DNA from: an uncultured Gemmatimonadales bacterium
GTDB taxonomy: Bacteria > Gemmatimonadota > Gemmatimonadetes > Longimicrobiales > RSA9
NCBI GenBank assembly: GCA_963798085.1
Contig: CAWCRS010000007.1
Span: 576,001-640,000, forward strand
Direction: 5' to 3'
DNA: 64,000 bases
The notes under the pieces were generated by a model. The model had not been told where the DNA came from and did no database searches. It saw nothing but the letters and a program-made list of their open reading frames with translations. This document shows, in pieces, positions 34,643-53,369 of this stretch; within the stretch, counting starts at the first letter, position 1; each line of letters opens with the position of its first letter. The translations under genes and the position numbers were made by a program.

Positions 34643-37600
34643 ATGATCAACCGGGCGAGCATGTCGGCTTCCGCGCACGCACAGCTCTCAACGATCATCG
34701 CGGATATCCGTTCGCGCTGGCGCCTGAAGGTCGCCTTGCGTGGCGCCGCGCGGTCGTCTGCGGCGTCGGCGTCGTCGCGCTGCTGGTTTCCGCGTTCGGC
34801 CTCGAGAAGCTCGGCTTCACGCCGGGCGCCGTGGTCATCGCCTTCCGCGTCGCTGACATGGCTGACGCATCGCCGTGCTCGATCGTGCGCTACCTGATCC
34901 GTCCGCTCATGCGGCGCGTCATCGATGAGACGATCGCGCTCTACCTCGAGGAGCACGAGCCGACGCTTGCAGGCCGCAGTGCTCAGCGCGCTCTCCGTGG
35001 GCGAGCCCGCGAAGGCGGAGGATCGCCGCTCGTGTCCGCAGCGCTCGCCCGCCGCACCATCGAGGATGCCGTGTCCGCGCTGCCACGCGATCGACGACGG
35101 CAGGCGCATCGACGGCCCCGCGATCACCCGCTTCGGCACCGCGCTGGGCGGCGCCGCGGTGCTCGGCATGGCACACTGTTCCTGAGCCCGGCTTCATCCG
35201 CACGGCGCGCGGACCTGCTCAATCCGTTCGCGAGCGCAGCGACGGCGAGCCCGTACGCGATCGAGGTCACACCGGGCAACGTGACCATCCCGCGTGGCGC
35301 TGACCAGTCCGTCACGGCGCAAGCTGCGCGGCTTCACCTCGGAAGCGGCCGAATCGTGGTCAGGACCGGCGGCGACTCCTGCCTTCCAGCGCCTGCCGAT
35401 GAACGCGGCGCGGATTCCGGCAACTTCGAGCTGCTGCTGTTCGCGCTCGACCACAACACGGACTACTACATAGAGTCCAACGGCATGCGCTCGCCCGTGT
35501 TCCACATCACGGTCGCGGACATCCCGTACGTCGAGAACCTGCGCCTCGAATACCATTTCCCTGCGTACACCGGGCTGTCGCCCCAGGTGATCGAAGACGG
35601 CGGCGACATCGCCGGTGCTGCGCGGCACGACCGTTCGCGTGTTCGCAAAGACCACACTGCCCGTGCCCGGTGGCCACATCATCCGCGATGCCGGGCGAGC
35701 CGATAGCGCATGTCACCGGACACCAGCGGGCTGCTGGTCGGTGAGATGCGCGTCGATCAGGACGGCTACTACCACATCGAGCTGACCGGGCGCGAGGGCA
35801 AGCCGGCATCGGGCTCGCCGCAGTACTCGATACAGGTGCTCGAGGACATGCCGCCGATAGTGTCGTTCAACAAGCCCGGCCGCGACACGCGCGTATCACC
35901 CATCCAGGAAGTCTTCGTCGAAGCGAAGGCAGAGGACGATTACGGCATCGCGAAGCTCGAGCTGATCTACTCCGTCAACGGCGGCGCCGAAAAGACGATT
36001 TCGCTGGTCGACACGGACAAGCCGCAGCGGAGACGTGGCCGGCTACACGTTCTACCTCGAAGAACTGGGCCTCAAGCCCGGCGACCTCGTGTCCTACTAC
36101 GCACGCGCGTCCGATAACAACGCGGTTGGACAGAAGAAGACCGCCACCAGCGACATCTACTTCCTCACCGTGCGGCCCTACGACCTGACCTACCGTCAGG
36201 CCGATCAGGCCGTGGCGGCGGCGGCGGCGGGGGACAGCAGCAGCAGCAGAACGGCCGGCTCTCCGATCAGGAGCGCGACATCATTGCCGCCACGTTCAAC
36301 GTCACGCGCGACAGCTCGCACATGACGCGCAAGGAATTCTCGGAGAATCTCGTCACCATCGCGCTGGCGCAGGAAACGCTGCGCGGCCAGGTCGAGACCC
36401 TCGCCGACACGCATGAAGAACCGCGGCATCACCGATGACTCCGTGTTCGCCGCCATCGCGAACATGCTGCCGCAGGCGTCGAAGGAAATGGACGACGCGC
36501 TGAAGAACCTGCGCGCTGAGAAGGCACAGGAAGCGCTGCCCGCGGAGCAGCGCGCGCTGCAGATCCTTTTGCGCGCGGAAGCGCTGTATCGCGATGTGCA
36601 GGTCGCTTTCCAGCAGCAGCAGCAGGCCGGTGGCGGCGGCGGTGGCGGCGGCACGCCCAATGCCGAAGACCTCGCCGATCTGTTCGAGCTGGAGCTGGAC
36701 AAGCTGCGCAATCAGTACGAAACCGTGCAGCGCGGCGAGCGCGATTCCGCGCAGAACCAGGTCGATGAGACGCATCAACCGGCTGAAGGAACTGGCTCGC
36801 CGCCAGCAGCAGGAAAACGAGCGCATGCGCCAGCTCGGCCGCGCCGGCGGCGGCGGCGGCGGTCAGTCCAGCAGCAGCCAGCGCCAGCTCGCCGACTCCA
36901 CCGAGGCCGCTGCGCGTCAGCTCGAGAAGCTGGCCCGCGAACAGTCCAATCCGCAGCTCAACGACATCGCGCGGCGCCTGCGCGAAGCCGCCGACGCCAT
37001 GCGCCGCAGCGCCGCCAACACGCGCAACGGCAACACCGCCGACGGCCAGTCCGCGCTCGACCGGCTCGAGGAGGCGCGCCGTCGCCTGCAGCGCGCGCAG
37101 ACCGGCGCGCTCGCGGATCAGGCGAAGAGCGCGCTGCAGCGCGCCGAAGAGCTGTCGCGCGATCAGAAGGATGTCGCGCGCCAGATGGAAGGCCTCAACA
37201 ACCAGACGGGCCAGGACCGCACCCAGCAGGCCGGCCAGATCATTGAGCGCAAGGACCAGCAGACGGCCGAGCTGGAGAACCTGCAGCACGACCTGAATCG
37301 CATGGCCAGCGAGGCCGGCCGCGACCAGAAGGATGCCGCACGCGCACTGCAGGAAGCCGCCAACGGCATCACCGACAGCCGCGTGCGCGAGAAGATCCGC
37401 TACTCGCGCACCTACACGGCGCCGGGCACGAACCCGGAATACTCACGCGGCCTGGAGCAGGAGATCGGTCAGAACATCGACGGCATCCGTGACAAGCTGC
37501 GTGAAGCCGTGCAGTCCTTCGATCAGGGCGACAAGGCCGACAAGGCGCAGCAGGCCGTGGACCGGGCCCGCGATCTGGCGCGCGGCCTCCAGTCGCTCGA

Positions 37601-38438
37601 AGACCGCACCCGCCAGGCCCAGGACCAGAACGGCCGCCGCCTCGGCGACCGCGCCGGCCGCGACTCGACCGGTCAGAATGGCCAGCAGGGTCAGAATGGC
37701 CAGCAGGGCCAGAACGGCCAGCAGGGGCAGAACGGCCAGCAGGGCCAGAACGGACAGCAGGGCCAGAACGGCCAGCAGGGCCAGAACGGCCAGCAGGGTC
37801 AGAACGGCCAGCAGGGTCAGAACGGCCAGCAGGGCCAGAACGGCCAGCAGGGCCAGAACGGCCAGCAGGGCCAGAATGGCCAGCAGGGTCAGAACGGCCA
37901 GCAGGGTCAGAACGGCCAGCAGGGTCAGAACGGCCAGCAGGGCCAGAACGGCCAGCAGGGCCAGAACGGGCAGCAGGGTGGCAACGGCAATCGCGATGGC
38001 CAGCGGGGCAACGATCAGCGCGGCCTGACACAGGGTTTGCCCGGCGGCCCGGGTGGTGGGCAGGACGCGCGTCCGCGCGGCCTCGCCTCCGACCAGATCC
38101 GCCAGCTGCGTGGTGAAGCCCGTGACCGCCTGGCGGACGCGCAGCGCCTGCGCGACGAGCTGAAGAAGCAGGGCGTGGACACGCGCGAGCTGGACCAGGT
38201 GATCAAGGACCTGCAGTCGCTGGACAGCGATCGTGTGTACGGTGTGCCGGCGGACCTGGCCCAGTTGCAGGCGCAGGTGGTCGACAACATGAAGCAGTTC
38301 GAGTTCCGCCTGCGCCGCCAGCTGCTGGGCGATGACGAAGACAAGCTGCTCCTCTCCGGCTCGGACGAGGTTCCCGAGAAGTTCCGCAAGCTGGTCGAGG
38401 AGTACTACAAGTCGCTGGCGCGCAAACAGCGGAACTAG
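34643..38438 (+). CDS. Large DUF4175-like membrane-anchored coiled-coil protein (many frameshifts)
   Basis: GAGG SD; N-terminal TMs; VTPGN, YHFPAYTG, DMPP.V....PGRD, AEDDYG, LKPGD.V.YYARA.DN; Q-rich coils; VPEKFRKLVEEYYKSLA end. Confidence 0.7.
37671..37976 (+). repeat. 17 x 18-bp coding tandem repeat (GQNGQQ)
   Basis: GGNCAGAAYGGNCAGCAG units, 306 bp, only synonymous variation. Confidence 0.97.
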
Positions 38439-38515: not shown

Positions 38516-39405
38516 ATGGCACACATTTTCGGCACGCATCCAGTCGACACGGGCGGTCTGGACATGGCCGTCTACCGCTCGTGGAACGCGGGACTCAGGG
38601 CCGTGCAGATCTTCACGGCCATACCCAAGTTCTACGGCGACAAGTCCACCATCCGCCCGGATCGGGTCGAGCGCTTCCGCGAGGCGCTGGCGAAGACGGG
38701 CATGAAGCCGGAGCACGTGATGGTGCACGCGGCCTACGTGCTCAGTGTGGCGACCGCCGATCCCGCCATGTGGGAGCGGGCAAGCGCGGGCCTGGCGAAG
38801 GAAATGGAGCGCTCCACCGAGCTCGGTGTTGGCCAGGTCTGCTTCCACCCGGGCTCGGCCAGTGATGGCGATCCGAGGGCGGCGGCGAAGCGCGTGGCCC
38901 ATGCCATGGTGGTGGCGCTCGAGCGCGTGCCGCCCGGCGTGCGCCTGCTCGTCGAAAACACGGCCGGCGCCGGCCGCACCTCGGCCGCAGTGCCAGCGAA
39001 GTGGGTGACATCCTTTCGCACATTCCCGCCGCCCTGCGCGCGCGCTGCGGCTACGGTCTCGATACCTGTCACCTGTTCGCCTCCGGCTACGACATCACGG
39101 CGTCGGAGGCGAAGCTGCGCTCGATCCTCGATGAATTCGAGAATGCCGCCGGCGAGAAGCCGTCGTTCTTCCACCTGAACGACAGCGAAGGCGCACTCGG
39201 CTCGAACCGCGACCGCCACACCCTGCTCGGTCGCGGTCTGATCGGCACCGAGCCGTTCCGCTGGCTGTTCGCGGATCCGCGCGCGCTCGGCGTTCCGCTC
39301 ATCCTCGAGACGCCGCAGATCAACGTGGATGTGGCGCGTGATGACCCTTCACCCGATCCGTACGACATCGAGATGCAGGCGCTGCTGGTCTCGCTCACGC
39401 GCTGA
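38516..39405 (+). CDS. nfo: Endonuclease IV (frameshift near 38990)
   Basis: GTH, VQIFT, VHAAY, FHPGS, ENTAG, DTCHLF, HLNDS..GS.RDRH, ILETP. Confidence 0.88.
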
Positions 39406-41920: not shown

Positions 41921-41952
41921 GGGTTCAAGCAATACAGTTGAGCCAGCCGCCA

Positions 41953-43095
41953 ATGGCGCCATCCGACGGCGTGCCCCCCGGGGCCGCCGCTGCCGGCCAG
42001 TCCAGCAACCACTCTGGCGGCGCACACCGCGCGCCGCCGCCTGATCGGCCGGCCGAGCGCGGCGCGCTTGCGCCCGCCCTGCGCATCCCGCTGTTCTACA
42101 AGCTGCTCCTCGCCAACGGCATCATTGTAATCACGGTGGCCGGCGTGAGCGCGGCCCTGTCCAGGCATGTCTCCACCCTGGACCGTCCCGAATCCGCAAC
42201 GACGCCCTTCCTGCTGCTCGCACTGGGCGGCCTCCTGCTGACACTGGTGTTCAATGCCCTGATCGTCTGGCTGGCGCTTTCACCCGTGCGCGCGCTGGAA
42301 CAGGCCGCCGCGCGCGTGCGCTCCGGCGACTACTCGGCCCGCGCCACGGTCACGTCCGTGGCCAATGTGGAACTGGAGCGGCTGGTGGGCACCTTCAATC
42401 AGGTGCTCGACGCCGTGCAGGAACAGAACCGGCGCCTGCGCGAGCTGGCCGGCCGCGTCCAGACCGCCATGGAAGAGGAGCGCCAGCGCGTGGCGAGGGA
42501 ACTGCACGACGGGATCGCGCAATCTCTGGCGGCTCTGACGATCAGGGTCAAACTTGCACGCAACGCCACGGACAACGAAGTTCGGGCGTCCGTGCTCAAT
42601 GAGGTCAGCGGCGGCATCGCGGATGCCATTCTGGAGCTCCGGCGCATGGCGAAGGGCCTGCGGCCGCCGGCGCTCGAGACGCTGGGACTCGCGGCCGCCG
42701 TCGAATCACACGCCCGTGCAGTCGGCGAGAATTGCAATATTGTCGCAGAAATTACAACCGATAACGTTGCCGGGCTGCTCGCACCTGAAAACGAACTGAC
42801 GCTCTACCGGATTCTGCAGGAGAGTCTCTCGAATGTCGTCCAGCATTCGGGCGCGTCCCGGGTCGGGGTCGAGCTTCGGCGCAAGAACGGCAGTGTGCTC
42901 CTTGCAATCGAGGATGATGGCTGCGGCTTCGACACGGCCGTCGTACTCCAGGCCGACCGCAGCCTGGGTTTGTTCGGCATGAAGGAGAGGGCCTACTTCA
43001 TGGGCGGCAGTCTGGAAGTGAGCAGCGAAGTGGGTCGCGGTACTCGAGTGCAGGTCACAGTTCCTGTCCTGGAGGGAACAGCGCATGTCCGATGA
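41953..43095 (+). CDS. Membrane sensor histidine kinase (2 TM, HAMP, HisKA_3; NarX/DegS class)
   Basis: EEERQRVARELHDGIAQ, LRPPALE.LGL, LYRILQESLSNV..H, EDDGCGF, LGLFGMKER. Confidence 0.92.
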   Translation: MAPSDGVPPGAAAAGQSSNHSGGAHRAPPPDRPAERGALAPALRIPLFYKLLLANGIIVITVAGVSAALSRHVSTLDRPESATTPFLLLALGGLLLTLVFNALIVWLALSPVRALEQAAARVRSGDYSARATVTSVANVELERLVGTFNQVLDAVQEQNRRLRELAGRVQTAMEEERQRVARELHDGIAQSLAALTIRVKLARNATDNEVRASVLNEVSGGIADAILELRRMAKGLRPPALETLGLAAAVESHARAVGENCNIVAEITTDNVAGLLAPENELTLYRILQESLSNVVQHSGASRVGVELRRKNGSVLLAIEDDGCGFDTAVVLQADRSLGLFGMKERAYFMGGSLEVSSEVGRGTRVQVTVPVLEGTAHVR

Positions 43096-43744
43096 TCTGA
43101 TCCGTATTCTCCTTGCGGATGACCACCAGGTCCTCCGTGCCGGGCTGAAGGCACTGCTCGAAGCGGAGCCCGACATGCGCGTGGTGGCAGAAGCATCAAC
43201 GGGCGAAGAGGCACTCGAGAAGACACGCTTCCTCAAGCCCGATGTCGTGGTCATGGACCTGTCCATGCCGGGCATTGGCGGACTCGAGGCGACGCGCGCC
43301 ATCACCAGCGAAGGCATCGCCAAGGTGCTGGTGCTCACCATGCACGCCGAAGAGGAATACCTGCTGCCCGTGCTGGAAGCCGGTGGCAGCGGCTACGTGA
43401 AGAAGACCAGCGCCGACGTGGACCTGACCGCGGCCATACGCACCGTAGCCAAGGATGAGGTGTTCCTCTATCCCAACGCGGCGAGGCTGCTGCTGCAGGG
43501 CTTCCGCGTGCGCGGTGAAAAGCGCGAGGATGATCCGCTCGACCGACTCACCGAACGCGAGCGCAATGTGCTGACCATGACCGCCGAAGGCTTCAGCTCC
43601 TCCGAAATCGGCGAGAAGCTCTTCATCTCTCCCAAAACGGTCGACACCTACCGCTCTCGCATCATGCAGAAGCTGGAGCTGACGCACCGTTCGGAACTCG
43701 TGCGCTTCGCCCTCAACGCGGGACTGTTGAAGCCGCAGCCGTGA
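43085..43744 (+). CDS. NarL/LuxR-family response regulator
   Basis: ILLADDH, VMDLSMP, LTMH, LTERE..EIGEKLFISPKTVDTYRSRIMQKL. Confidence 0.96.
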   Translation: MSDDLIRILLADDHQVLRAGLKALLEAEPDMRVVAEASTGEEALEKTRFLKPDVVVMDLSMPGIGGLEATRAITSEGIAKVLVLTMHAEEEYLLPVLEAGGSGYVKKTSADVDLTAAIRTVAKDEVFLYPNAARLLLQGFRVRGEKREDDPLDRLTERERNVLTMTAEGFSSSEIGEKLFISPKTVDTYRSRIMQKLELTHRSELVRFALNAGLLKPQP

Positions 43745-44025
43745 TCGCACAGGCTGCGCGCCCGTCTCCCGCACCCTGAGCCGTCGCACCCGACCAACAC
43801 CGGAGCCGGTGACGCGGAATCGTCGCCCGCCCCAACACGTCGTTAGACGGTCACCCGCTCCCGCACGGACCAGACCACGAGGAGAAACGCCTTCCCCGAA
43901 GCCGGGCATGCCGGGCAGCCGGTCCCGGGCATGCGCGGGCGTCCCATCCGCGCCCTGTTCCCCAGCCCCGGCGCGGGCCCCAGCAACGCCGCTCCGCCCA
44001 GGCAAACGACGGGCAGCCGGCAAGC

Positions 44026-45427
44026 CTATTTGCCCGCCAGCGGATCCCCCACGTGACAGGCCTTGCAGATGATCGGGTTCTTCTGCTGCGCGCGTCTGGC
44101 GTCGAAATCCTTGCCGTGCGGACTCACCTGGAACGCGCCCAGTGTGGAGTGGCACTGCAGGCAGTCGCGCTGCTGGTGGCAGGACACGCACCCATCCAGG
44201 CCTCGCCGCGCGGCCGCCGCCGTGGCGCAGCAGCCAGAGCGGCTCCGCATCGTGGAAGACGGGGCTCAGCAGACGGCCCTGCGCCGTCTGGCCCGCCTGC
44301 TGGTGACAGCTGCGGCAGAACACCTTCGGATCGTGGCAGTTCGAGCACTCCATGCGGCCGTTGTAGGCGGACGCGGAATGCGAAACCATGAAATCCGGTG
44401 GATGGAAGCTGGCGCGCGCGGGCGCACTGTGGCACTGCTCGCAGAAGCTGGTGGTGTGACAGGTCGCGCACTCGTTGCGATCCGTAGCCGCCAGTCCTCC
44501 GTGATTGCTCGGGAACGAGGGCGAGGCATGCGACAGCGGCTTGCTGCGCTGCACGGATACGCCCTGCGCCGCCGTACTGGAACGCGACGGCAGCCCTGCC
44601 GCCACAGGCGGCAGTCGCTCGCTATGGCAGGTGGCGCAGCTCTCGCGCGTATGGCACGTCGCGCAGGCCGCGACGGATGCATCCCGGCCGTGTGTCACCG
44701 GAAAGTCTGACCGGTCGTGCGACGCGGGCTTCACATAGTGCGCCGCGATCGTTGCGTAAGGCAGTGTTTGGGGCGCTTCCGGGATGCGCGTGATCGCGTC
44801 CACGCGGGTCGCGTTCACGTGGCACGACGCGCACTGCTGGCGTACGTGACAGAACTGGCAGCTGGCTCCGCTCTGCTGTGCGGCGCGTCCGTGATCACTG
44901 AGGAACGTCGGGCTCGCGTGGCTGGTCGGTCTGGGAAGCGCTGCCAGTCTGTCCGCTGGCAGGTTGCTGCTGGCCAGGGCCGCGTGGCACGTCGAGCACG
45001 GCGCATCCACGTAGTGATCGGTTGCCGGATGCCCGTGGCAGCTCAGACAGGTGGTTGGCCGCGCTGGCGACACATGACCGGCCTGGTCGTGGCAGGAGGC
45101 ACACTGCAGCTGCGGGCTCTCGCTCGATGTCGCCTGCGCGTGGGTGGCGTGGCTGAAGCGCAGGAGCGTGACGCGCGGCGATCGCGGCGACCAGGTGACC
45201 CGGCGCACCTGCGTGCCATCGTGACAGCGTGCGCACAGCTCCGTGGCGGGAAAATGGTCCGCCACGTTGCCGCTCTCCATGACGTGGCAGCCGGTGCAGA
45301 ACGGGAACAGCCGGGCGTGCAGATCGTGCGGGAACGCGCTTTGTTGCCTCGCCGCGCGCGCCAGTACGCCGCCCGCGGCCAGCACGGCCAGCGCCACGCC
45401 GAGCAGCAGAACGCGCAGGGTCTTCAT
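44026..45427 (-). CDS. Exported 16-heme c-type cytochrome (frameshift near 44220)
   Basis: Signal peptide; 13 CxxCH in ORF 43196..45427 plus 3 more (CVSCH, CLQCH, CKACH) in ORF 44026..44250. Confidence 0.9.
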
Positions 45428-46893
45428 CGGCCACCCAGGCGCGCACCCGGATCGCTGCCGAAGCCAATGCGCAGTGACGCAAAACCGCGCAGCTGGTTCC
45501 AGTCGGGCGTGCCCACGCGTCCCGTGAATGTCTGGTGGTAGATGTTGCCGCCCACATCGATGCCGGTGCGTGTGTTCAGGTCGTAACCCAGCGACGCGCC
45601 GCCACCCAGCACCGCACCCTCACCCACGCGGAATTCCTCGATCTGCTGGAACGCCGTGCCGTTCAGCGTGACCGTCAGGTGCTCGTTGGCCTGCCAGCGC
45701 GCGAAAGCGCGGCCCGAGCTGAGGAAGGCGCCGAAGCCCTTCTCGATGTCGTACTGTCCATCCAAGGTCCATGCCGCCCGCGGCGACCAGCGTGCACCCA
45801 CGCCGCCGCGCTGTGCATGGTCGGGCAGCTCGCTGATCACGATGGGTGCGTTGGTCGGCTGGTACTTGCGATAGCCGCCATTGGCGCGCAACGACAGCGT
45901 GCGCGACGGGCTCCAGCTTGCACGCAGCTCGCCCTCGTGGTAGGCGGCGGGATCGAAGAAGCCCCAGATCGTCCACAGCTCGAAGTACGGCACATAGCGG
46001 CGACCGGTGGCTTCGAGCCAGAACGAGCCGTTGCGGCCCAGCGGCGCACGCACCGTGACGTCCGATGTGCCCACGCGGTTGAAGGCGACGTCGTAGTCGC
46101 TCGACGCCGTGAGGCTCATGCGGCGGGGCAGCGGTGCGCGCAGGTCCAGCGAGGCGCGCTCCGAGAGCAGGCCGGACCGGTCCGACCAGATCTCGCGCTG
46201 ATAACGCGCTGTCAGGTTGATGCCGGGCAGCGGTTCGATCCAGGCGGCACCGCCCAGCAGCCATGCGCTGCGGTCCAGCACGAAGTCCTCGACATTCTGC
46301 AGCGCTGCGTTGCGCGGCTCGTCCAGGCCGCGCGCCAGGCTGCGGCCGCCATACGCCTCGATCTGCACGTGCCTGAGCGGCTCGCCCATCACGCTGGCGC
46401 CATCGAATCCCGCGAACCCCAGTCCGCTGGTGGAGCGCTGCCGGCCCACGCGCACCCGCCATGTGCTGCGGTCCAGCTCGAGGTAGGCGAGCATGGCGTC
46501 GAACGCATGGTCCGCGCGCGGCCACGTGAAATCGCTGCCCGCATCCGTTCGCGCGCGCACCAGCACCGTCGCGCTCAGCCCGGTGAGGCCCAGGCCCCAC
46601 GCCGTGAAGCTCACGTCTTCCGCCGCCAGTACCGCGTGCTCGACCCGGCCGGCCTCGTAGCGGATGCAGATGGGCTGGCCGGCGACGCACACGATGGGCA
46701 CACCCTGGTACGTGTATTCGCCGTTAGGGCCGGGCGTGGCGGCGCTGAGTGGAATCGTGTCGCGCACCAGCGGCCGGATCTGCACGTACTGCCCTGTGCT
46801 CGTGGCGGTGCCGCGCAGGCTCTGCGCTGCCGCCGGCGAGGTCATGGCGATGAGCCCCGTGAGACTGAGCCACAGCATGTGGCGCGCACTCAC
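45424..46893 (-). CDS. Putative outer-membrane beta-barrel porin of a porin-cytochrome complex
   Basis: Signal peptide (AAA|Q); no CxxCH; many amphipathic beta-strands rich in W/Y/F/G/R; stop-start overlaps with both flanking cytochromes. Confidence 0.7.
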   Translation of the reverse strand: MSARHMLWLSLTGLIAMTSPAAAQSLRGTATSTGQYVQIRPLVRDTIPLSAATPGPNGEYTYQGVPIVCVAGQPICIRYEAGRVEHAVLAAEDVSFTAWGLGLTGLSATVLVRARTDAGSDFTWPRADHAFDAMLAYLELDRSTWRVRVGRQRSTSGLGFAGFDGASVMGEPLRHVQIEAYGGRSLARGLDEPRNAALQNVEDFVLDRSAWLLGGAAWIEPLPGINLTARYQREIWSDRSGLLSERASLDLRAPLPRRMSLTASSDYDVAFNRVGTSDVTVRAPLGRNGSFWLEATGRRYVPYFELWTIWGFFDPAAYHEGELRASWSPSRTLSLRANGGYRKYQPTNAPIVISELPDHAQRGGVGARWSPRAAWTLDGQYDIEKGFGAFLSSGRAFARWQANEHLTVTLNGTAFQQIEEFRVGEGAVLGGGASLGYDLNTRTGIDVGGNIYHQTFTGRVGTPDWNQLRGFASLRIGFGSDPGARLGGR

Positions 46894-47621
46894 TGGTCAC
46901 CTCGCGCGTCATGGAAGGGGGGCAGAATGTGACAGTTCACACAGCGCTCGCCCGGACAATGCGTGGTGCGGTCGCGATGACACGAGACACAGACTTGTCG
47001 CGTGCGCGGGTCGCCCGCAATGAAATCGGGCTTGTGGCAGCTGCTCCCCGCGCAGCTCAGGTGCACCGCGAGCGGGTGCACGTTCGCCGGCGGCTGCGCG
47101 TGGCAGGCCGTACAGTCGCGCACGCTCTGGTGGTGATCCGCATGACAGGACGCACACAGGTTCGCCGCCACACTGCGCGTCTGCGCATCCGCGTGGCAGC
47201 GCGTGCACTCGACTGTCGCGTGCCGCTCGTGCACGAACGGCAGATTGCGCGGCAGCGGTGCGCGGTTCGCGATCGTCGCGGTCTGTGCGTACAGGTAGGT
47301 GTGTCCGGCATTGGCCGCCGGGGCATGGCAGTTGGCGCAGGTCTTCGACGTCGCCGTCTCGTGATGACAGCGCTGGCAGTCGGCAGGCCGCGAAATCGTG
47401 AGTTTGCCGTGCGCCTGCGTCGAGCTGTGGCACGTGCTGCACTCGAGCTTGCGATGCGGCTGATGCGAGAACGGCTGCTGGCGCGCCATTTCCTGCGCCC
47501 CGGCGCGCGCCGGCGTGATGCCACCCGCGAGCAGCAGACCGGAAGTCGCAAGGCAATAATTGAGCATCCGCCGCACGCGCGAGCGCGGCCCTGCTGTCAG
47601 ACGCCGGAGCTGGGAAAGCAC
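46890..47621 (-). CDS. Periplasmic multiheme cytochrome c (c3-like; 8 CxxCH + 1 CX4CH)
   Basis: FSHxxH and FxHxxH c3-type ligands; CSTCH, CQRCH, CANCH, CTRCH, CASCH, CTACH, CAGSSCH, CVSCH, CVNCH; signal peptide AGA|Q; start may be downstream. Confidence 0.9.
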   Translation of the reverse strand: MLSQLRRLTAGPRSRVRRMLNYCLATSGLLLAGGITPARAGAQEMARQQPFSHQPHRKLECSTCHSSTQAHGKLTISRPADCQRCHHETATSKTCANCHAPAANAGHTYLYAQTATIANRAPLPRNLPFVHERHATVECTRCHADAQTRSVAANLCASCHADHHQSVRDCTACHAQPPANVHPLAVHLSCAGSSCHKPDFIAGDPRTRQVCVSCHRDRTTHCPGERCVNCHILPPFHDARGDQ

Positions 47622-47655
47622 TCGTCGTGTTCCCGGTTCAGTGCGGTGGTAAATG

Positions 47656-47702
47656 GATCGACCCCGGAAGGCGGCTGTTCCGCCGGCCCTCCGAGGTCGA
47701 TC
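47656..47702 (-). terminator. Intra-operon 17-bp hairpin
   Basis: On the minus strand GATCGACCTCGGAGGGC..GCCTTCCGGGGTCGATC is fully paired, including two G-U. Confidence 0.55.
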
Positions 47703-47720
47703 TGCGACTGCGTTCCTCCC

Positions 47721-49160
47721 TTACTTGATGCGCGTCTTCTGCAGAATGTTATCCAGCACGATGCCCGGAGGCGCCGTGATTCCGTAGTCCTTCGTGATCT
47801 GCTTGATGCTGCCCGTGACCAGTGCCTCGGTCAGGAACGGATTATGGATGACCGAGCCATCGAAGTCGCGCGCCAGGCTCAGGTCGAACGACGCACCCTC
47901 GCCGGTCGTCAGTTTGCCATCGCTCGTATTGAACTCCGTCGACGGAATCTTCTTGATCATCGCATCCAGCGTGTTGGTCAGCACGTCGATGCGACTTTGC
48001 GCGGCAATGAAGGCGGAGCGAGCCGATACCTCGGTGTGACAGCCGGTGGCGGCGCAGCTCTTGAACGTACGTGCGCTGATATCGCAATTACCAGCCGTCG
48101 GCAGACCCTTCGAGTCGAGGCAGGGAATGGGCTCGAACAAGTGCCCTGTCGCCTGGAACACGAAGCTGCCCGTATTCGGATCCGTCACCTGGAAACGATT
48201 CACATGGCACGTCGCGCACAGACGGGGATTCGAATCACTCCCGTGCGTCGCGACCAGCTCACCCGGGTTCACCCCGAAATCGGGCGGGAACCAGCCGGCG
48301 TTGCCCAGCAGCAGCGCACCCTGGGGCGCGTGCGGTCCGCGCGTAGAGGTCAGCTCCGGCGTGACGCGCCGGTCATGGCACTTCATGCACAGGTTCTGCT
48401 CTTCGCTCGGCACATCGATGGGGAAGCGCAACTGCGCGCTGTTGGCCTTCTCGTGCGGGTCGTGGCAGACGGCGCACACGATCGCCAGGTGCGCGCTCGC
48501 ATTGTTCGCCAGGCTGTCCTTCTCCAGGTAGTTCGAGTTGATGCCCCACGCCCGCAGAATGCCTTCGCCTACGTGGCAGCCCTGGCATGCGGTGTTGCCT
48601 GCCGGCGAGGGTTCGATGTTGGCGTGCAGCGACTGCCGCCACTCGGTCACGAACGGCTCGTGCGTGCCGCTGTGGCACTCGCCGCAGCCCGTCGTCAGAC
48701 CGGTGTCCACCTTCATCGGCGCCAGCGGCACGTTCGTCGCCTGCGGGTTCTGCACGTGCGTCAGACCCGGGCCATGGCAGTTCTCGCATTGCACGTCGTG
48801 GTAACGTGCATCCTTGGTCACTGTGTAGCCGCCGTCCGCGACCGTCTTGTTGCCCAGCGCGCTCACGGAGTGGCAGTTCTCGCACGCGGCAGACGCGTGG
48901 CCGCTCGCCTGCAGATCCGCCCAGGCGCCGGCGTGCTTGGTCTGCGCCCAGGACGTCTGGTTGTTGACGTGACAGTTGCCACAAACAGTGAGTTTGGTGG
49001 CTTCGTCCGTGTATCCCAGAAAGTTGGCGGCGCCCGGCGGTGGCTCGGTGAACAACTCGCGATCGCGGAATACGACCTTCTCGTCCACGCAACTGGCGCT
49101 CGCAAGACCGAGCAGAAGAATCAGGCTCAGTCGCTTGCCGTGTCCGGTTACGAGCGGCAT
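47721..49160 (-). CDS. Lipoprotein multiheme cytochrome c (8 CxxCH + 1 CX4CH) with helical C-terminus
   Basis: AGGGGG SD; lipobox LASAS|C; CGNCH, CENCH x2, CGECH, CQGCH, CAVCH, CMKCH, CATCH, CAATGCH; DGS.IHNP C-terminal motif. Confidence 0.9.
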   Translation of the reverse strand: MPLVTGHGKRLSLILLLGLASASCVDEKVVFRDRELFTEPPPGAANFLGYTDEATKLTVCGNCHVNNQTSWAQTKHAGAWADLQASGHASAACENCHSVSALGNKTVADGGYTVTKDARYHDVQCENCHGPGLTHVQNPQATNVPLAPMKVDTGLTTGCGECHSGTHEPFVTEWRQSLHANIEPSPAGNTACQGCHVGEGILRAWGINSNYLEKDSLANNASAHLAIVCAVCHDPHEKANSAQLRFPIDVPSEEQNLCMKCHDRRVTPELTSTRGPHAPQGALLLGNAGWFPPDFGVNPGELVATHGSDSNPRLCATCHVNRFQVTDPNTGSFVFQATGHLFEPIPCLDSKGLPTAGNCDISARTFKSCAATGCHTEVSARSAFIAAQSRIDVLTNTLDAMIKKIPSTEFNTSDGKLTTGEGASFDLSLARDFDGSVIHNPFLTEALVTGSIKQITKDYGITAPPGIVLDNILQKTRIK

Positions 49161-49603: not shown

Positions 49604-51652
49604 ATGAGTGATTCTAGCGGGCCCGCAGCCCCTGCGAGTGCTGCGATGCGGCACGGTCTGGTGGGATCGGAACCTCGCGCAGACTACCTGGCCATCGCGT
49701 TCGAACACACGACGCGGCTGATTACCGTTCTGTCTCCGGAAGGCATCTTCCTGGAAGCCAATCGCGCGGTCTGCGAGTTCGTTCAGCTGCCCGCGGAGGA
49801 GCTGATCGGCCGGAGCGTCTGGGACATGGCCTCCAGCTCCGGCATCGAGCAATTCCGGGTCGCATGGAACCGGGCGTTGCTCGGCGAGACCGTCCAGTAC
49901 CGTTCGTCTGACAGGCGTACCGGCCGCACCGTCTGGTTCGACATCACCCTTACTCCCGTCCTCGACGCCCGCGGCGATATCGGCCTGGTTGTAAGCGAAG
50001 CGCGCGATGTCACGGAGATCGAGCTGGCCGAGCGCGAGGTGCGTCTGTCGCGCGAAAAATACGCCGGCATCGTGGACATCTCCGCTGATGCCATCATTTC
50101 ACTGGACGAAGCCCTCCGCATTACGGATTTCAACAAAGGCGCTGAGCGCATTTTCGGCTATGCGGCGGGCGAGATCGTCGGCGAGCCGCTCGACCTGCTG
50201 ATCCCGGAGCGCTTCCGCACGGCTCATCGCTCGCACATCCGCGCGTTCGGAACCTCGTCTGTGGACGCCCGGCGCATGGGCGAGCGCCAGGGAATCTGGG
50301 GCATCCGCAAGGGCGGTGACGAGTTCCCGGCGGATGCGAGTATCTCCAAGCAGGTGATTGACGGGCAGCGCGTCTACACGGTGGTGCTGCGCGACAACTC
50401 ACTGCCCAAACAGCTCGAATCCGTGCAACGCTTCCTGGCTCGCGCGGGAAGCCTGCTGGCATCGTCGCTCAATGTGGCGACGACGTTCGACAGCGTCGCC
50501 AGCCTGGCCGCCGACTTCATTGCCGACTGCTGCGTGATCTACGATGCGCGCGAGCCGGGTGCGCCGCGGCGCGTGGCCGTCGCGACACGAGTACCGGCGA
50601 AGGAGGCGGTGCTGAACGCGTATCGCGGCCGCCCGTTGCGGCTGGACAGTCAGCACCCGGTGATGCGCGTGCTGGAGACGGGCGAGCCGTTGCTGCTGCA
50701 GGAGGCGGAAGTCGCAGCGTCGTCAACCGGGGATGGCGACGCTGGCCTGCTGCGCGAACTGCCCGTACGCTCGGCCATGTTCGTGCCACTGGGCGCGCGC
50801 GGTCGCACCTGGGGCGCCATCGCGTTCTTCAACGTGGCGAGCGAGTCGCGCTTTGATACGGAAGATGTGGGACTGGCCCAGCAGCTGGCCTCGCGCGCAT
50901 CCCTCGCCATCGACAATGCGCAGCTCTACCAGTCCGCGAAGGACGCGATTTCCGCCCGTGACGACGTGCTGGCCGTCGTTTCCCACGACCTGGGCAATCC
51001 GCTCAGCGCCATTCGCATTGGCGTGTCGCTGCTGCTGCGCAACACTACGCACGGTCGTCAGGGCGAGGGCTGGGAGCACCTCTCGGGCATCAAGCAGTCC
51101 GTCGAGCAGATGGAGCGGCTCATCCGCGATCTGCTCGACATCAAGCGCATCGAGGCAGGACATCTCTCGCTCGACTGGAAACCGCTGCGGCCCGCCCTGC
51201 TGGTGAACAGTGTGATCGAAATGTTTGCGGCCATCGCCGCCCAGAAATCGATTGCGCTGAAGGCGCGCGTGGCCACCCGGCTGCCGGCCGTGCGCGCCGA
51301 CCGCGAACGCATCATCCAGGTCCTCTCCAACCTGATCGGCAATGCCCTGAAGTTCACGCCCAAGGGCGGCGTGATCGAGGTACACGCATCGTCAGTCGAC
51401 CGGCACGTCCTCTTTTCCGTGCGCGACAATGGCGCCGGCATCACGCCCGAAGACCTGGAGCACATCTTTGACCGCTTCTGGCGCGCCCGTCGGATGCAAC
51501 GCGAATCAGGGGCCGGACTGGGCCTGGGTCTCGCCATTGTGAAAGGCATTGTGCAGGCGCATGGCGGACGTGTCTGGGCGGAGAGTCAGCCGCAGCAGGG
51601 CACAGCGGTATACTTCACCATCCCCACGGTGCGCGAGGCCGCCCCCGCCTGA
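49604..51652 (+). CDS. Cytoplasmic PAS-PAS-GAF histidine kinase
   Basis: Two PAS domains (second FixL-like: FNKGAERIFGY..LIPERFRTAH), GAF, VSHDLGNPL, NLIGNALKFT, DNGAGI, GLGLGL. Confidence 0.93.
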   Translation: MSDSSGPAAPASAAMRHGLVGSEPRADYLAIAFEHTTRLITVLSPEGIFLEANRAVCEFVQLPAEELIGRSVWDMASSSGIEQFRVAWNRALLGETVQYRSSDRRTGRTVWFDITLTPVLDARGDIGLVVSEARDVTEIELAEREVRLSREKYAGIVDISADAIISLDEALRITDFNKGAERIFGYAAGEIVGEPLDLLIPERFRTAHRSHIRAFGTSSVDARRMGERQGIWGIRKGGDEFPADASISKQVIDGQRVYTVVLRDNSLPKQLESVQRFLARAGSLLASSLNVATTFDSVASLAADFIADCCVIYDAREPGAPRRVAVATRVPAKEAVLNAYRGRPLRLDSQHPVMRVLETGEPLLLQEAEVAASSTGDGDAGLLRELPVRSAMFVPLGARGRTWGAIAFFNVASESRFDTEDVGLAQQLASRASLAIDNAQLYQSAKDAISARDDVLAVVSHDLGNPLSAIRIGVSLLLRNTTHGRQGEGWEHLSGIKQSVEQMERLIRDLLDIKRIEAGHLSLDWKPLRPALLVNSVIEMFAAIAAQKSIALKARVATRLPAVRADRERIIQVLSNLIGNALKFTPKGGVIEVHASSVDRHVLFSVRDNGAGITPEDLEHIFDRFWRARRMQRESGAGLGLGLAIVKGIVQAHGGRVWAESQPQQGTAVYFTIPTVREAAPA

Positions 51653-51822
51653 GCTTCGCGCACGCCGCGCGTCGCAGCACGTTGCCCCGCAAATCCAGCA
51701 CGCGTCGTCAGGTCGTCGCTTCCCGCCAGTCGTCCATCGCCCGACAGAGGCTCACCGCTCCGACCACCAGATTCCATGTATAGTGCGCGTGGAAGCGCAC
51801 GACGCGGTGAAGGGAGAGGACG

Positions 51823-52794
51823 CTGTTCCGATCGATTCTCGTGCCGCTCGACGGGTCCGCGTACGCGGAACAGGCGCTGGGCAGGGCCATGTGGGTGGCG
51901 AAGCGGGGCGCAGCCGCAGTGCGCCTGCTGCACGTGCGCCCGCCGCTCGTGGTACCCTACCACGTTGGCGCTGACATCGACGCGCTGCTGGCGGCGGAGA
52001 CATCCGTACGGCTGCACATGGGGGAGTACCTGGCGCTGCAGGCGAGGCGGCTCGGTCAGAGCGGTGACATCGCGGTTTCCAGCGAACTCGTCGAAGGTGC
52101 CGTCGTGCGCCGGATTCTGGAAACCGCGCGCGCGACAGGCAGTGATCTGATTGCCATGACCACGCACGGCAGCGGTGGTCTTTCGGATGCATGGCTGGGC
52201 AACGTGGCGGACGGCGTAATGCGCAATGCGCGCGTGCCGGTGCTGCTGGTGCGCGCGCGCCCTCGGCCGCCGGAACGCGCCGAGCCGTTCATCGGGCGCG
52301 TGCTCGTGCCACTGGATGGCTCGGCGCAATCCGAGACCGTGCTGGCTCCCACAACAGCCCTGGCCCGCATGGCTGCGCTCGCCGTCACCGTTCTCGCCGT
52401 GGTGACGTTGCCTGTCAGCGTGGGGGAGCCACCGATCATGCTGGGCGGCGCGCCGGATCCGGCGGAAGAGTACCGCCGCGCCAACGACTACGTACAGCGT
52501 GCCGAGGCGCAGCTGCGCGCCAGTGGCGTGGACGCCGTGGGCATCGTGCGCGTAGGACTGCACCCCGCCTCCGTGATCCTGGAGACGGCGAGCGAGCTGG
52601 ACGCGCACATCGTGGTCATGGCGACGCACGGGCGGAGTCGCCTGCACCGGCTGTCGATGGGAAGTGTATCGGACAAGGTGCTGCGCAGCACGCACGTGCC
52701 GGTGCTGCTGGTGCGACCGCCCGCGGACAGGCGAACCGTGCGTCCGTCCGACAGGGGCTACAGCAATGCGGGGCGGCAGGCCCGGCACGAATGA
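51823..52794 (+). CDS. Tandem universal stress protein (start probably CTG 51823; GTG 51841 alternative)
   Basis: FRSILVPLDGS; DLIAMTTHG..LGNVAD; second domain VLVPLDGS..MATHGR..GSVSDKV. Confidence 0.92.
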   Translation: MFRSILVPLDGSAYAEQALGRAMWVAKRGAAAVRLLHVRPPLVVPYHVGADIDALLAAETSVRLHMGEYLALQARRLGQSGDIAVSSELVEGAVVRRILETARATGSDLIAMTTHGSGGLSDAWLGNVADGVMRNARVPVLLVRARPRPPERAEPFIGRVLVPLDGSAQSETVLAPTTALARMAALAVTVLAVVTLPVSVGEPPIMLGGAPDPAEEYRRANDYVQRAEAQLRASGVDAVGIVRVGLHPASVILETASELDAHIVVMATHGRSRLHRLSMGSVSDKVLRSTHVPVLLVRPPADRRTVRPSDRGYSNAGRQARHE

Positions 52795-52814
52795 GACACG
52801 TCGTGGAGGGAGAC

Positions 52815-53369
52815 ATGACAACGTTGCGGGAAATCATGACGCGCGATCCTGTGACCGTGGGGCCGGAAGCGACCCTGCGCGAGCTGGTCGAGCTGCTCAC
52901 CAATCGATCGATCAGCGGCGTCCCTGTCGTGACCGGTTCCGGCGAAGTGGTGGGCGTCATCTCGGCGACCAATGTGCTCTCCTTCACCGCAAGTACGCCC
53001 GCGATACCCTCAGACCGCTCCGAATCGCTGGCCGAATGGGGCGAGGAACCGGACACGTCCGACGAAGACGACGAATCGACGCCCGAGTTCTACGCCGAGC
53101 TGTGGGCCGACTCGGAGGCAGACGTGCTCACGCGCGTCGATGGCGCCACCTCGCCGGAATGGGATCTGCTCGAGGAGCACACCGTGAGTGAAGTGATGAG
53201 CCGTCGCCTGCAGTCGGTTCCCATCGACGCGGACCTGCCGACCGTGGCCCGGCGCATGATCCGCGCTGGCGTGCACCGGTTGCTCGTACTGGAAGACAAA
53301 CACCTGGTTGGGCTGGTGACCACCACCGATTTCGTGCGCGCCGTGGCGGAGCGGCGCATCCCCGCCTGA
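52815..53369 (+). CDS. CBS-pair protein with acidic insertion
   Basis: EIMTRDPVTV, ISGVPVV..VGVIS, EVMS, VHRLLV..LVGLVT; GGAGG SD. Confidence 0.9.
   Translation: MTTLREIMTRDPVTVGPEATLRELVELLTNRSISGVPVVTGSGEVVGVISATNVLSFTASTPAIPSDRSESLAEWGEEPDTSDEDDESTPEFYAELWADSEADVLTRVDGATSPEWDLLEEHTVSEVMSRRLQSVPIDADLPTVARRMIRAGVHRLLVLEDKHLVGLVTTTDFVRAVAERRIPA

Follow-up and report, generated by a model that had tools for sequence, protein, structure and literature searches.

We describe a four-gene operon of multiheme cytochromes in a 64,000-nucleotide stretch of DNA from an uncultured Gemmatimonadales bacterium (assembly GCA_963798085.1, contig CAWCRS010000007.1, positions 576,001 to 640,000 of the forward strand; hereafter the window), which probably encodes a porin-cytochrome conduit carrying respiratory electrons outward from menaquinol through the outer membrane. 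The operon comprises genes for a lipoprotein cytochrome (A), an exported cytochrome (B), a predicted heme-free beta-barrel (C) and a 16-heme cytochrome (D) whose reading frame is broken in the assembly. Judged from its sequence, it is a real, conserved porin-cytochrome variant outside the Mtr, PCC3 and PCC4 types, and the separation of B into a tail within the operon and a head encoded elsewhere is new. Its genes, motifs and synteny were read directly from the DNA of this genome and its relatives, and the fold of the barrel and its contact with D were modeled. Coordinates below are positions within the window; G000 is the window's own genome, with C1, C7, C8 and C10 among its contigs; G010, G013, G017, G023, G056 and G295 are genomes of relatives, and L-numbers (L025, L039, L041 and so on) denote the loci compared.

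Organization of the operon

The four genes are co-oriented on the minus strand in the order reported by an earlier note on this DNA, and the last three overlap at stop and start, as that note also stated (four bases each: GTGA between B and C, ATGA between C and D). The features, with protein lengths in amino acids (aa), are as follows.

47721..49160, minus strand: A, nine-heme lipoprotein cytochrome (479 aa; lipobox Cys24; 8 CxxCH and 1 CxxxxCH)
47655..47701, minus strand: long hairpin in the spacer between A and B (from folding of the 104-nucleotide spacer)
46890..47621, minus strand: B, exported nine-heme cytochrome (243 aa; 8 CxxCH and 1 CxxxxCH)
45424..46893, minus strand: C, predicted heme-free outer-membrane beta-barrel of an unnamed family (489 aa; no heme motif)
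44222..45427, minus strand: D main frame, signal peptide and hemes 1-13 (from the motif count and homologues)
44026..44221, minus strand: D shifted 3' piece in another frame, hemes 14-16 and the stop at 44026

In a six-frame translation of the whole window, 32 of the 37 CxxCH motifs fall within the 5.1 kb of the operon; the cluster is therefore far from chance, and we rejected a chance accumulation of heme motifs. The motifs add up to 34 (nine each in A and B, none in C, 13+3 in D), which agrees with the earlier total of about 34 but is valid only if counted across the frame break in D. The claim that the last gene encodes an intact exported 16-heme cytochrome does not stand: its frame carries 13 motifs, and the other three lie in another frame.

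The hairpin between A and B (-46.1 kcal/mol, z -3.5; one of 200 shuffles equally good) lacks a T-run, is absent from the terminator-scan list and is a possible transcript-stability or attenuation element. Neither a sigma-70 promoter nor a terminator was found on the coding strand of the operon. Scanning with what we take to be the FNR consensus gave no FNR-like box upstream of it and nine matches elsewhere, against 5.8 expected by chance.

The predicted barrel and its candidate cytochrome partner

The AlphaFold2 model of C, built from 119 sequences, has a pLDDT of 88.5 and a pTM of 0.81. DSSP assignments give 22 long membrane strands with long loops after the odd-numbered ones, and strand 1 begins directly after the signal peptide, with no N-terminal plug domain. 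The best structural matches are exclusively barrel domains of TonB-dependent receptors (Z 19.6, rmsd 3.8 over 353 residues), generic barrels that inform on fold and not on function. Because of the modeled strands and the restriction of the matches to receptor barrels without plugs, C is best described, at the level of the model, as a plugless, empty 22-strand outer-membrane-type barrel, in accordance with the beta-barrel proposed earlier for 45424..46893. We rejected a TonB-dependent receptor, given the absence of a plug and the confinement of the alignments to the receptors' barrel ranges. C scores below the cut-off of every Pfam and NCBIfam family, and PDB sequence searches with C and with its profile returned no match; since no Pfam or NCBIfam model recognizes the barrel family, profile-based screens miss it.

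D directly follows the barrel in all 20 loci of our comparison set and in all 13 further loci, which were hand-picked, lie mostly on long contigs and include two repeats from the 20-locus set. A is upstream in 18 of the 20, both misses being at a contig edge, and in all 13. The earlier expectation that all four genes are conserved together thus holds for the synteny in relatives and fails for B, which is absent in 7 of the 31 distinct loci.

We then predicted the complex of the intact orthologous pair from G010 (56% identical to C and 50% to D). It scored 0.78, against 0.00 for the best of three controls, which supports the idea that a cytochrome threads the barrel. Of solved complexes, 116 of 157 reach the mark applied to this score, as do 2 of 215 mismatched pairs; the mark is rough here, as our own alignments were used. 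The runs share at least 80% of contacts, with a partner pLDDT of 76-77. On the side of D, the confident contacts fall mostly on residues 283-437 (hemes 10-16), and on the side of C they fall on alternating residues of strands around the whole circumference; with this pattern, the segment of D with hemes 10-16 reads as inserted in the lumen of the modeled barrel. The tightest (lowest-error) contacts join D 386-402 to a conserved loop after strand 13 (residues 302-317 of the window's C), which in the model is an outer loop by strand parity. With D 386-402 placed on this loop by the model, the last hemes of D would face outward, and the c7-like N-terminal half would stay in the periplasm. The docking segment of D corresponds to the piece beyond the frameshift (44026..44221). 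As a whole the model supports binding of D by C. Folded alone with AlphaFold2, D reached an uninformative pLDDT of 63, and this model had no Foldseek match; RecA matches to D in a PDB sequence search were set aside as chance.

The lipoprotein cytochrome A

Among 30 aligned homologues of A, the lipobox Cys and the pair Cys347/Cys359 are present in all, and nine free His are kept in 28-30. Its sole PDB matches are OcwA of Thermincola (6I5B, E 1.4e-8) and OmhA of Carboxydothermus (6QVM, E 2.4e-5, the match spanning A 79-412), which are surface cytochromes of Gram-positive iron reducers (PMC9250108, PMC7096707; here and below, papers given by PMC number are cited from the portions of their text that were available). 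OcwA has nine hemes like A, whereas both proteins are Gram-positive surface proteins without a barrel, and their distal His pairs are partly kept in the A family. An Atlas look-alike search returned an 'OmcB family' cluster (0.94, rank 12), which serves as a lead only. By analogy with these proteins, A is a probable terminal cytochrome of the cell surface, its exposure there being something that we infer. No NCBIfam model reaches its cut-off with any cytochrome of the operon; with OcwA and OmhA nearest to A, the operon's cytochromes are not close homologues of soluble periplasmic enzymes.

Protein B and the quinol side

In the rest of the 31 distinct loci B is long, with 17-21 CxxCH motifs where complete. 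The window's B aligns only with the last ~200 aa of these homologues and has the motif pattern of their last nine, and a lone gene on another contig (G000:C1:68103-69512) aligns with their first 320 residues and equals their first 11 motifs. The 11 motifs of this head and the nine of the window's B together give the 20-motif spacing of six of the eight full-length forms, the other two differing at one motif. Going by these alignments, the window's B corresponds to the C-terminal half of a protein with 20 hemes, the matching membrane-anchored NapC/NrfH-like head being encoded on another contig, and the earlier description of B as a free-standing c3-like cytochrome is to be dropped. The window's B has neither the N-terminal membrane helix nor the CxxCHxM tetraheme head; among 22 extracted long forms, a hydrophobic stretch precedes heme 1 in 20 and CxxCHxM is present in 17. 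The NrfH/NapC models match heads of long forms with E-values from 1e-8 to 1e-11, and a PDB search with such heads finds NrfH at E 3.8e-4.

In the window itself no quinol oxidoreductase or cytochrome maturation gene of the families searched turned up, in line with the earlier claim, PF03264, PF03916, PF01578 and one cytochrome b query matching elsewhere only. PF03264 is above cut-off on C1 and C8 of this genome. C8 also carries an orphan full-length B homologue (C8:32762-34480, frameshifted), and both this gene and the lone head on C1 lie away from any barrel gene of the family. Related genomes show comparable arrangements: G023 has the same head/tail split of B together with an intact D, and G010 has an operon without B and a full-length B elsewhere in the genome.

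A second operon type is represented by a paralogous operon of the same genome (G000:C10:103254-111503, L061), which encodes first a lipoprotein cytochrome, a tail-only B with a lipobox, a frameshifted barrel and a 16-heme cytochrome. Three more proteins are encoded after this D: a 9-heme cytochrome that bears a membrane helix at its C-terminus, a Rieske protein and cytochrome b. This bc-type layout recurs in G010, G013 and G017. Each of the seven tail-only operons is accompanied by another quinol-side candidate, namely Rieske/cytochrome b within the operon in four cases and a lone head elsewhere in three. Some other loci have membrane-anchored cytochromes of CbcL-like appearance. At the orthologous locus L025, from the window's genus, there are two lipoprotein cytochromes, and 11- and 21-heme genes replace B; the input module varies within one genus.

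Phyletic spread and phylogeny of the barrel family

A profile of the barrel matches 138 of 301 Gemmatimonadota genomes including this one, 131 of them in its own class and seven, with weak scores (E 1e-11 to 1e-20), in other classes; the related genomes in these counts are not independent. In its own family 17 of 24 relatives carry the barrel, as against 1 of 8 and 0 of 8 in two other families of the order. Protein databases yielded 803 homologues among 8000 candidates and, in a separate search, 544 clusters at 50% identity; among the 120 homologues listed all are unnamed or hypothetical, and the named carriers are Gemmatimonadota.

In an unrooted tree of 40 barrels (one row of which, the second copy in L039, is labeled as a full-B operon and is actually bc-type), the window's barrel groups with those of G023, with its tail-only B, and G010, with no B in its operon, at a support of 94/87 that falls just short of the mark. 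These three are nested in a 100/100 clade with many full-B operons, and the barrels of bc-type operons form their own clade (98/95). The tree suggests that the window's B arose by fission.

The distant barrels from other classes of the phylum (L041-L047) are about 410-430 aa long, and all seven are followed by an 11-14-heme cytochrome. A further multiheme gene comes after that cytochrome at these loci, some of CxxxxCH type.

Comparison with known conduits

The proposed working plan of the operon is that of MtrCAB with CymA (PDB 6R2Q), in which a NapC-type quinol dehydrogenase, a cytochrome in a barrel and a surface lipoprotein cytochrome are combined. Its parts differ. C is shorter than MtrB, as was claimed earlier, with 22 strands against 28 predicted for MtrB (PMC4245776), and a Foldseek comparison of the two gave a TM of 0.41 and an rmsd of 15.7. 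The operon has neither a decaheme MtrA, again in line with the earlier claim, nor an MtrC: D has 16 motifs, B and A have nine each, and TIGR03508 has no match in B or in the main frame of D. The CymA-like part is, in this family, usually fused to a 20-heme chain within the operon. PF22113 does not match A, and MtrC is not among the PDB matches of A. PF11854 (MtrB/PioB) has no match in the genome, a result without a positive control since the 14 control genomes also gave none above cut-off. With PF11854, TIGR03508 and PF22113 all unmatched, we rejected membership of the MtrCAB/MtoAB/PioAB systems.

In the Geobacter Pcc system (OmbB-OmaB-OmcB), as here, a barrel gene precedes that of a periplasmic multiheme cytochrome, and the outer-membrane multiheme cytochrome of Pcc would have its counterpart in A. 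Pcc porins have 18-22 strands and Pcc periplasmic cytochromes 5-14 hemes (PMC4245776); the 22 strands of C are at the top of the porin range, whereas D has 16 hemes in all complete homologues. Further differences are the nine hemes of A (12 in OmcB), the position of its gene at the front, and the extra cytochrome B, which normally has a NapC/NrfH-like head. The distant barrels with their 11-14-heme partners resemble the Pcc pairs of Anaeromyxobacter and Kuenenia, which have 12-14 hemes, and are also closer to these pairs in size. A profile search aimed at OmbB or ExtB returned 13 proteins, none so named. The operon differs from the Geobacter Pcc in the features described here, and a distant kinship is possible.

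PCC3 and PCC4 (PMC5566968) likewise combine a porin with large multiheme cytochromes, and PCC3 porins have up to 42 strands. In contrast to them, the cluster has no five-helix inner-membrane protein, which defines both types, and consists of four genes with regulators flanking them; on the absence of that protein we rejected PCC3/PCC4 membership.

We found no paper describing the family in a literature search that mostly did not extend to subscription journals and in which figures were not visible. The closest report concerns a metagenome-assembled genome, SAW209 (Gemmatimonadota according to the supplement), with porin-cytochrome clusters including petB and petC, not described as a family in the accessible text (PMC13264449); such a cluster resembles the C10 paralogue and may belong to the same family as the window's operon. 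Otherwise, a single MtrCAB carrier (PMC8805035), one CbcL and two ImcH homologues (PMC6295460) and general mentions of multiheme proteins or Cyc2 (PMC9769843, PMC9671151, PMC10367259) are on record for the phylum. The available parts of PMC11495043, PMC11237511 and PMC11492766 hold nothing on the family, and those of the MHCscan supplements (PMC11475568) gave no match for five names of the phylum.

The trans-outer-membrane conduit with non-Mtr parts that the earlier note proposed is supported by the barrel fold, the synteny, the cytochrome homologies and the complex model. None of the three results that it had named as speaking against the proposal arose: C folds as a barrel in the model, the genes are found together in relatives, and the cytochromes have no close enzyme homologue.

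Proposed electron path and alternative readings

In the outward conduit that we favor, a membrane-anchored NapC/NrfH-like cytochrome, which constitutes the N-terminal half of B in most relatives, would oxidize quinol; in this genome the head would be supplied in trans by the lone gene on C1 or the full-length orphan on C8, and the paralogous operon would use the products of its observed Rieske, cytochrome b and 9-heme genes as the quinol side. B and the N-terminal half of D would then pass electrons across the periplasm, hemes 10-16 of D would traverse the plugless barrel with the last hemes toward the outer loops, as the model supports, and A at the surface would accept the electrons and, by its likeness to OcwA and OmcB, reduce an outside acceptor. 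Candidate acceptors are Fe(III) or Mn(IV) minerals, humic quinones or another cell. Contact between head and tail of B, the flow of electrons and its direction are conjectural parts of this scheme. The genome encodes ccm genes, menaquinone synthesis, an [NiFe] hydrogenase and a bd oxidase, a set that fits a facultative heterotroph able to make cytochromes.

Several points count against this path. Genes for aerobic respiration (alternative complex III) are present as well, so the gene set does not fix the direction. The heads of long B forms score 35-46 bits, against NrfH/NapC cut-offs of 134, and their similarity lies mostly in the region of the first two hemes. With one query, no head was found in three of five genomes tested (G013, G295, G056), and the quinol link is therefore not always visible; the main operons of these three lack B, and G013 does carry a bc-type operon. 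The complex was folded without hemes and on an orthologue, and may pass through likeness to MtrAB. A could face the periplasm, and OcwA reduces nitrite and hydroxylamine too (PMC7096707). D is broken as sequenced, and public reads (three DNA runs from one soil sample) do not bridge the break. No cultured carrier of the operon was identified.

It is unlikely, on balance, that the same conduit runs inward, with Fe(II), reduced humics or partner cells as electron donors and A, D and B as the route to quinone or an oxidase, as in MtoAB and PioAB. The architecture of such conduits leaves direction unfixed (PMC8805035), this genome has a heme-copper oxidase besides the alternative complex III and the bd oxidase, and the paralogue's bc-type module parallels other redox genes in the PCC4 clusters of Fe(II) oxidizers. 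However, it is reducing systems that typically possess a dedicated surface cytochrome, and MtoAB, PioAB and PCC4 are without one; the closest solved relatives of A are reductases, and RuBisCO has no match in the genome, which is 90% complete.

We consider it distinctly improbable that the operon encodes an NrfHA-like enzyme system, in which A would reduce nitrite, hydroxylamine or a sulfur-oxyanion and be fed by the NrfH-like head of B, with the barrel and D serving A or detoxifying at the surface. The resemblance of B heads to NrfH and the position of A by sequence in the OcwA/NrfA-related group favor it, as does one feature of the hemes: OcwA has distal His at two open hemes (H282 and H381), in pairs called conserved (PMC9250108), and, going by weak phmmer alignments, the His pair at the first of these sites is kept in 19 of 30 A homologues. 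In the window's A, however, the same alignments place Glu168 at the first site, the second position of the His pair, and Ala278 at the second site, and A has no CxxCK motif. Nine conserved free His for nine hemes would permit full bis-His ligation, a periplasmic enzyme has no need of a 16-heme partner modeled within a barrel, and the invariant pair of the operon is the barrel with D, not A with B.

The break in D raises the question of a decaying copy. Near 44220, D leaves the frame of its homologues through one extra base in a GGC run. Its main frame is 34-50% identical to single-frame 16-motif homologues, and the 3' piece, which has no stops, is 58-79% identical to their C-termini and is the best-conserved part of D. 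Homologous D genes are a single 16-motif frame in 17 of 20 loci (two are cut by contig ends and one is broken) and in all 13 hand-picked loci. Four other genes of this genome, rpoB, rpoC, atpD and coxA, likewise have their coding sequences divided between two frames, and the barrel of the C10 paralogue and two alternative complex III subunits are also frame-split; the split genes point to an indel-prone assembly. The frameshift in D is probably an assembly error, because these four genes are broken as well and the homologues are single-frame. Near-identical read contigs cover 43925-44181 and 44656-45055 without gaps, neither of them spanning the break. A crude codon model called 15 frameshifts in 480 kb of G000, compared with 5 in 405 kb (26 other loci) and 5 in 87 kb (five more); it missed the D break itself, and we therefore used the breaks in essential genes as evidence instead. 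A count by homology gave four splits among 31 G000 loci, which were not individually verified. That the frameshift is real and removes the barrel-docking hemes, that the loss of the B head is degeneration and that the C10 paralogue does the work is, given these data, very unlikely, for all that D is broken, B headless and the break unbridged by reads: the paralogue's own barrel is frameshifted too, and G023 combines a headless B and a lone head with an intact D.

A non-respiratory use, such as electron storage, metal reduction for uptake or detoxification, or surface redox sensing, deserves the least credence of all, because the coupling to quinol-interacting modules and a content of 34-45 hemes per operon are in keeping with a respiratory chain and no transporter gene lies among the scanned flanking genes, even if the family is very common (138/301 genomes), metal respiration is unreported for the phylum in the literature found, and Pcc clusters are present in organisms that do not reduce metals.

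Flanking genes and further multiheme clusters

The operon is flanked by regulatory genes on both sides. A divergent PAS/GAF histidine kinase, followed by Usp and CBS genes (49604-53369, plus strand), lies on one side, and a convergent histidine kinase with a LuxR-type regulator (41938-43744, plus strand) on the other; both sets are possible regulators of the operon. Farther out, 36594-38438 (plus strand) encodes the C-terminal part of a large protein with ~17 tandem GQNGQQ repeats, which causes a strong AT skew at 36001-38000. A gene that we take to be Endonuclease IV-like (38516-39405, plus strand) is split over two frames near 38980, among many probable assembly frameshifts in the window.

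Several more multiheme clusters occur in the genome. One (G000:C7:483959-489875, L064) encodes 19-heme and 27-heme cytochromes, a heme-free exported protein of 528 aa and a ferredoxin-flavoprotein, and is possibly a second, unrelated conduit. Another (G000:C4:34200-49600, L063) combines 5-, 8- and 10-heme cytochromes with cNMP-binding/ferredoxin, FHA-domain oxidoreductase and TPR/CsgG genes and unnamed exported proteins. A third locus (G000:C8:284698-286680, L066) encodes a multiheme protein like HAO or hydrazine dehydrogenase, with a PF13447 score of 156 bits and a score far below cut-off for the HDH model.

Implications for Gemmatimonadota

Porin-cytochrome conduits determine which bacteria breathe minerals, humics and electrodes. 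Gemmatimonadota are common in soils and sediments, and if the conduit works they would take part in the redox cycling of iron, manganese and humics. The segment that would cross the barrel is identified by the complex model, and the split of B offers natural evidence of how such a wire may be fed.

A broader view, to which we give somewhat less than an even chance, is that the operon represents a phylum-wide Gemmatimonadota wire with a fixed core, made up of the 22-strand barrel, the 16-heme insert and the OcwA-like lipoprotein, and with exchangeable quinol-side plugs, of which the head/tail arrangement seen here would be a split form. If so, the 20-heme anchored protein of most genomes would both oxidize quinol and span the periplasm, giving a hard-wired path without soluble shuttles, and the sister bc-type operon would provide one cell with two conduits tuned to acceptors of different potential. 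In that case, nearly half of the phylum's genomes would belong to organisms respiring minerals, humics or other cells.

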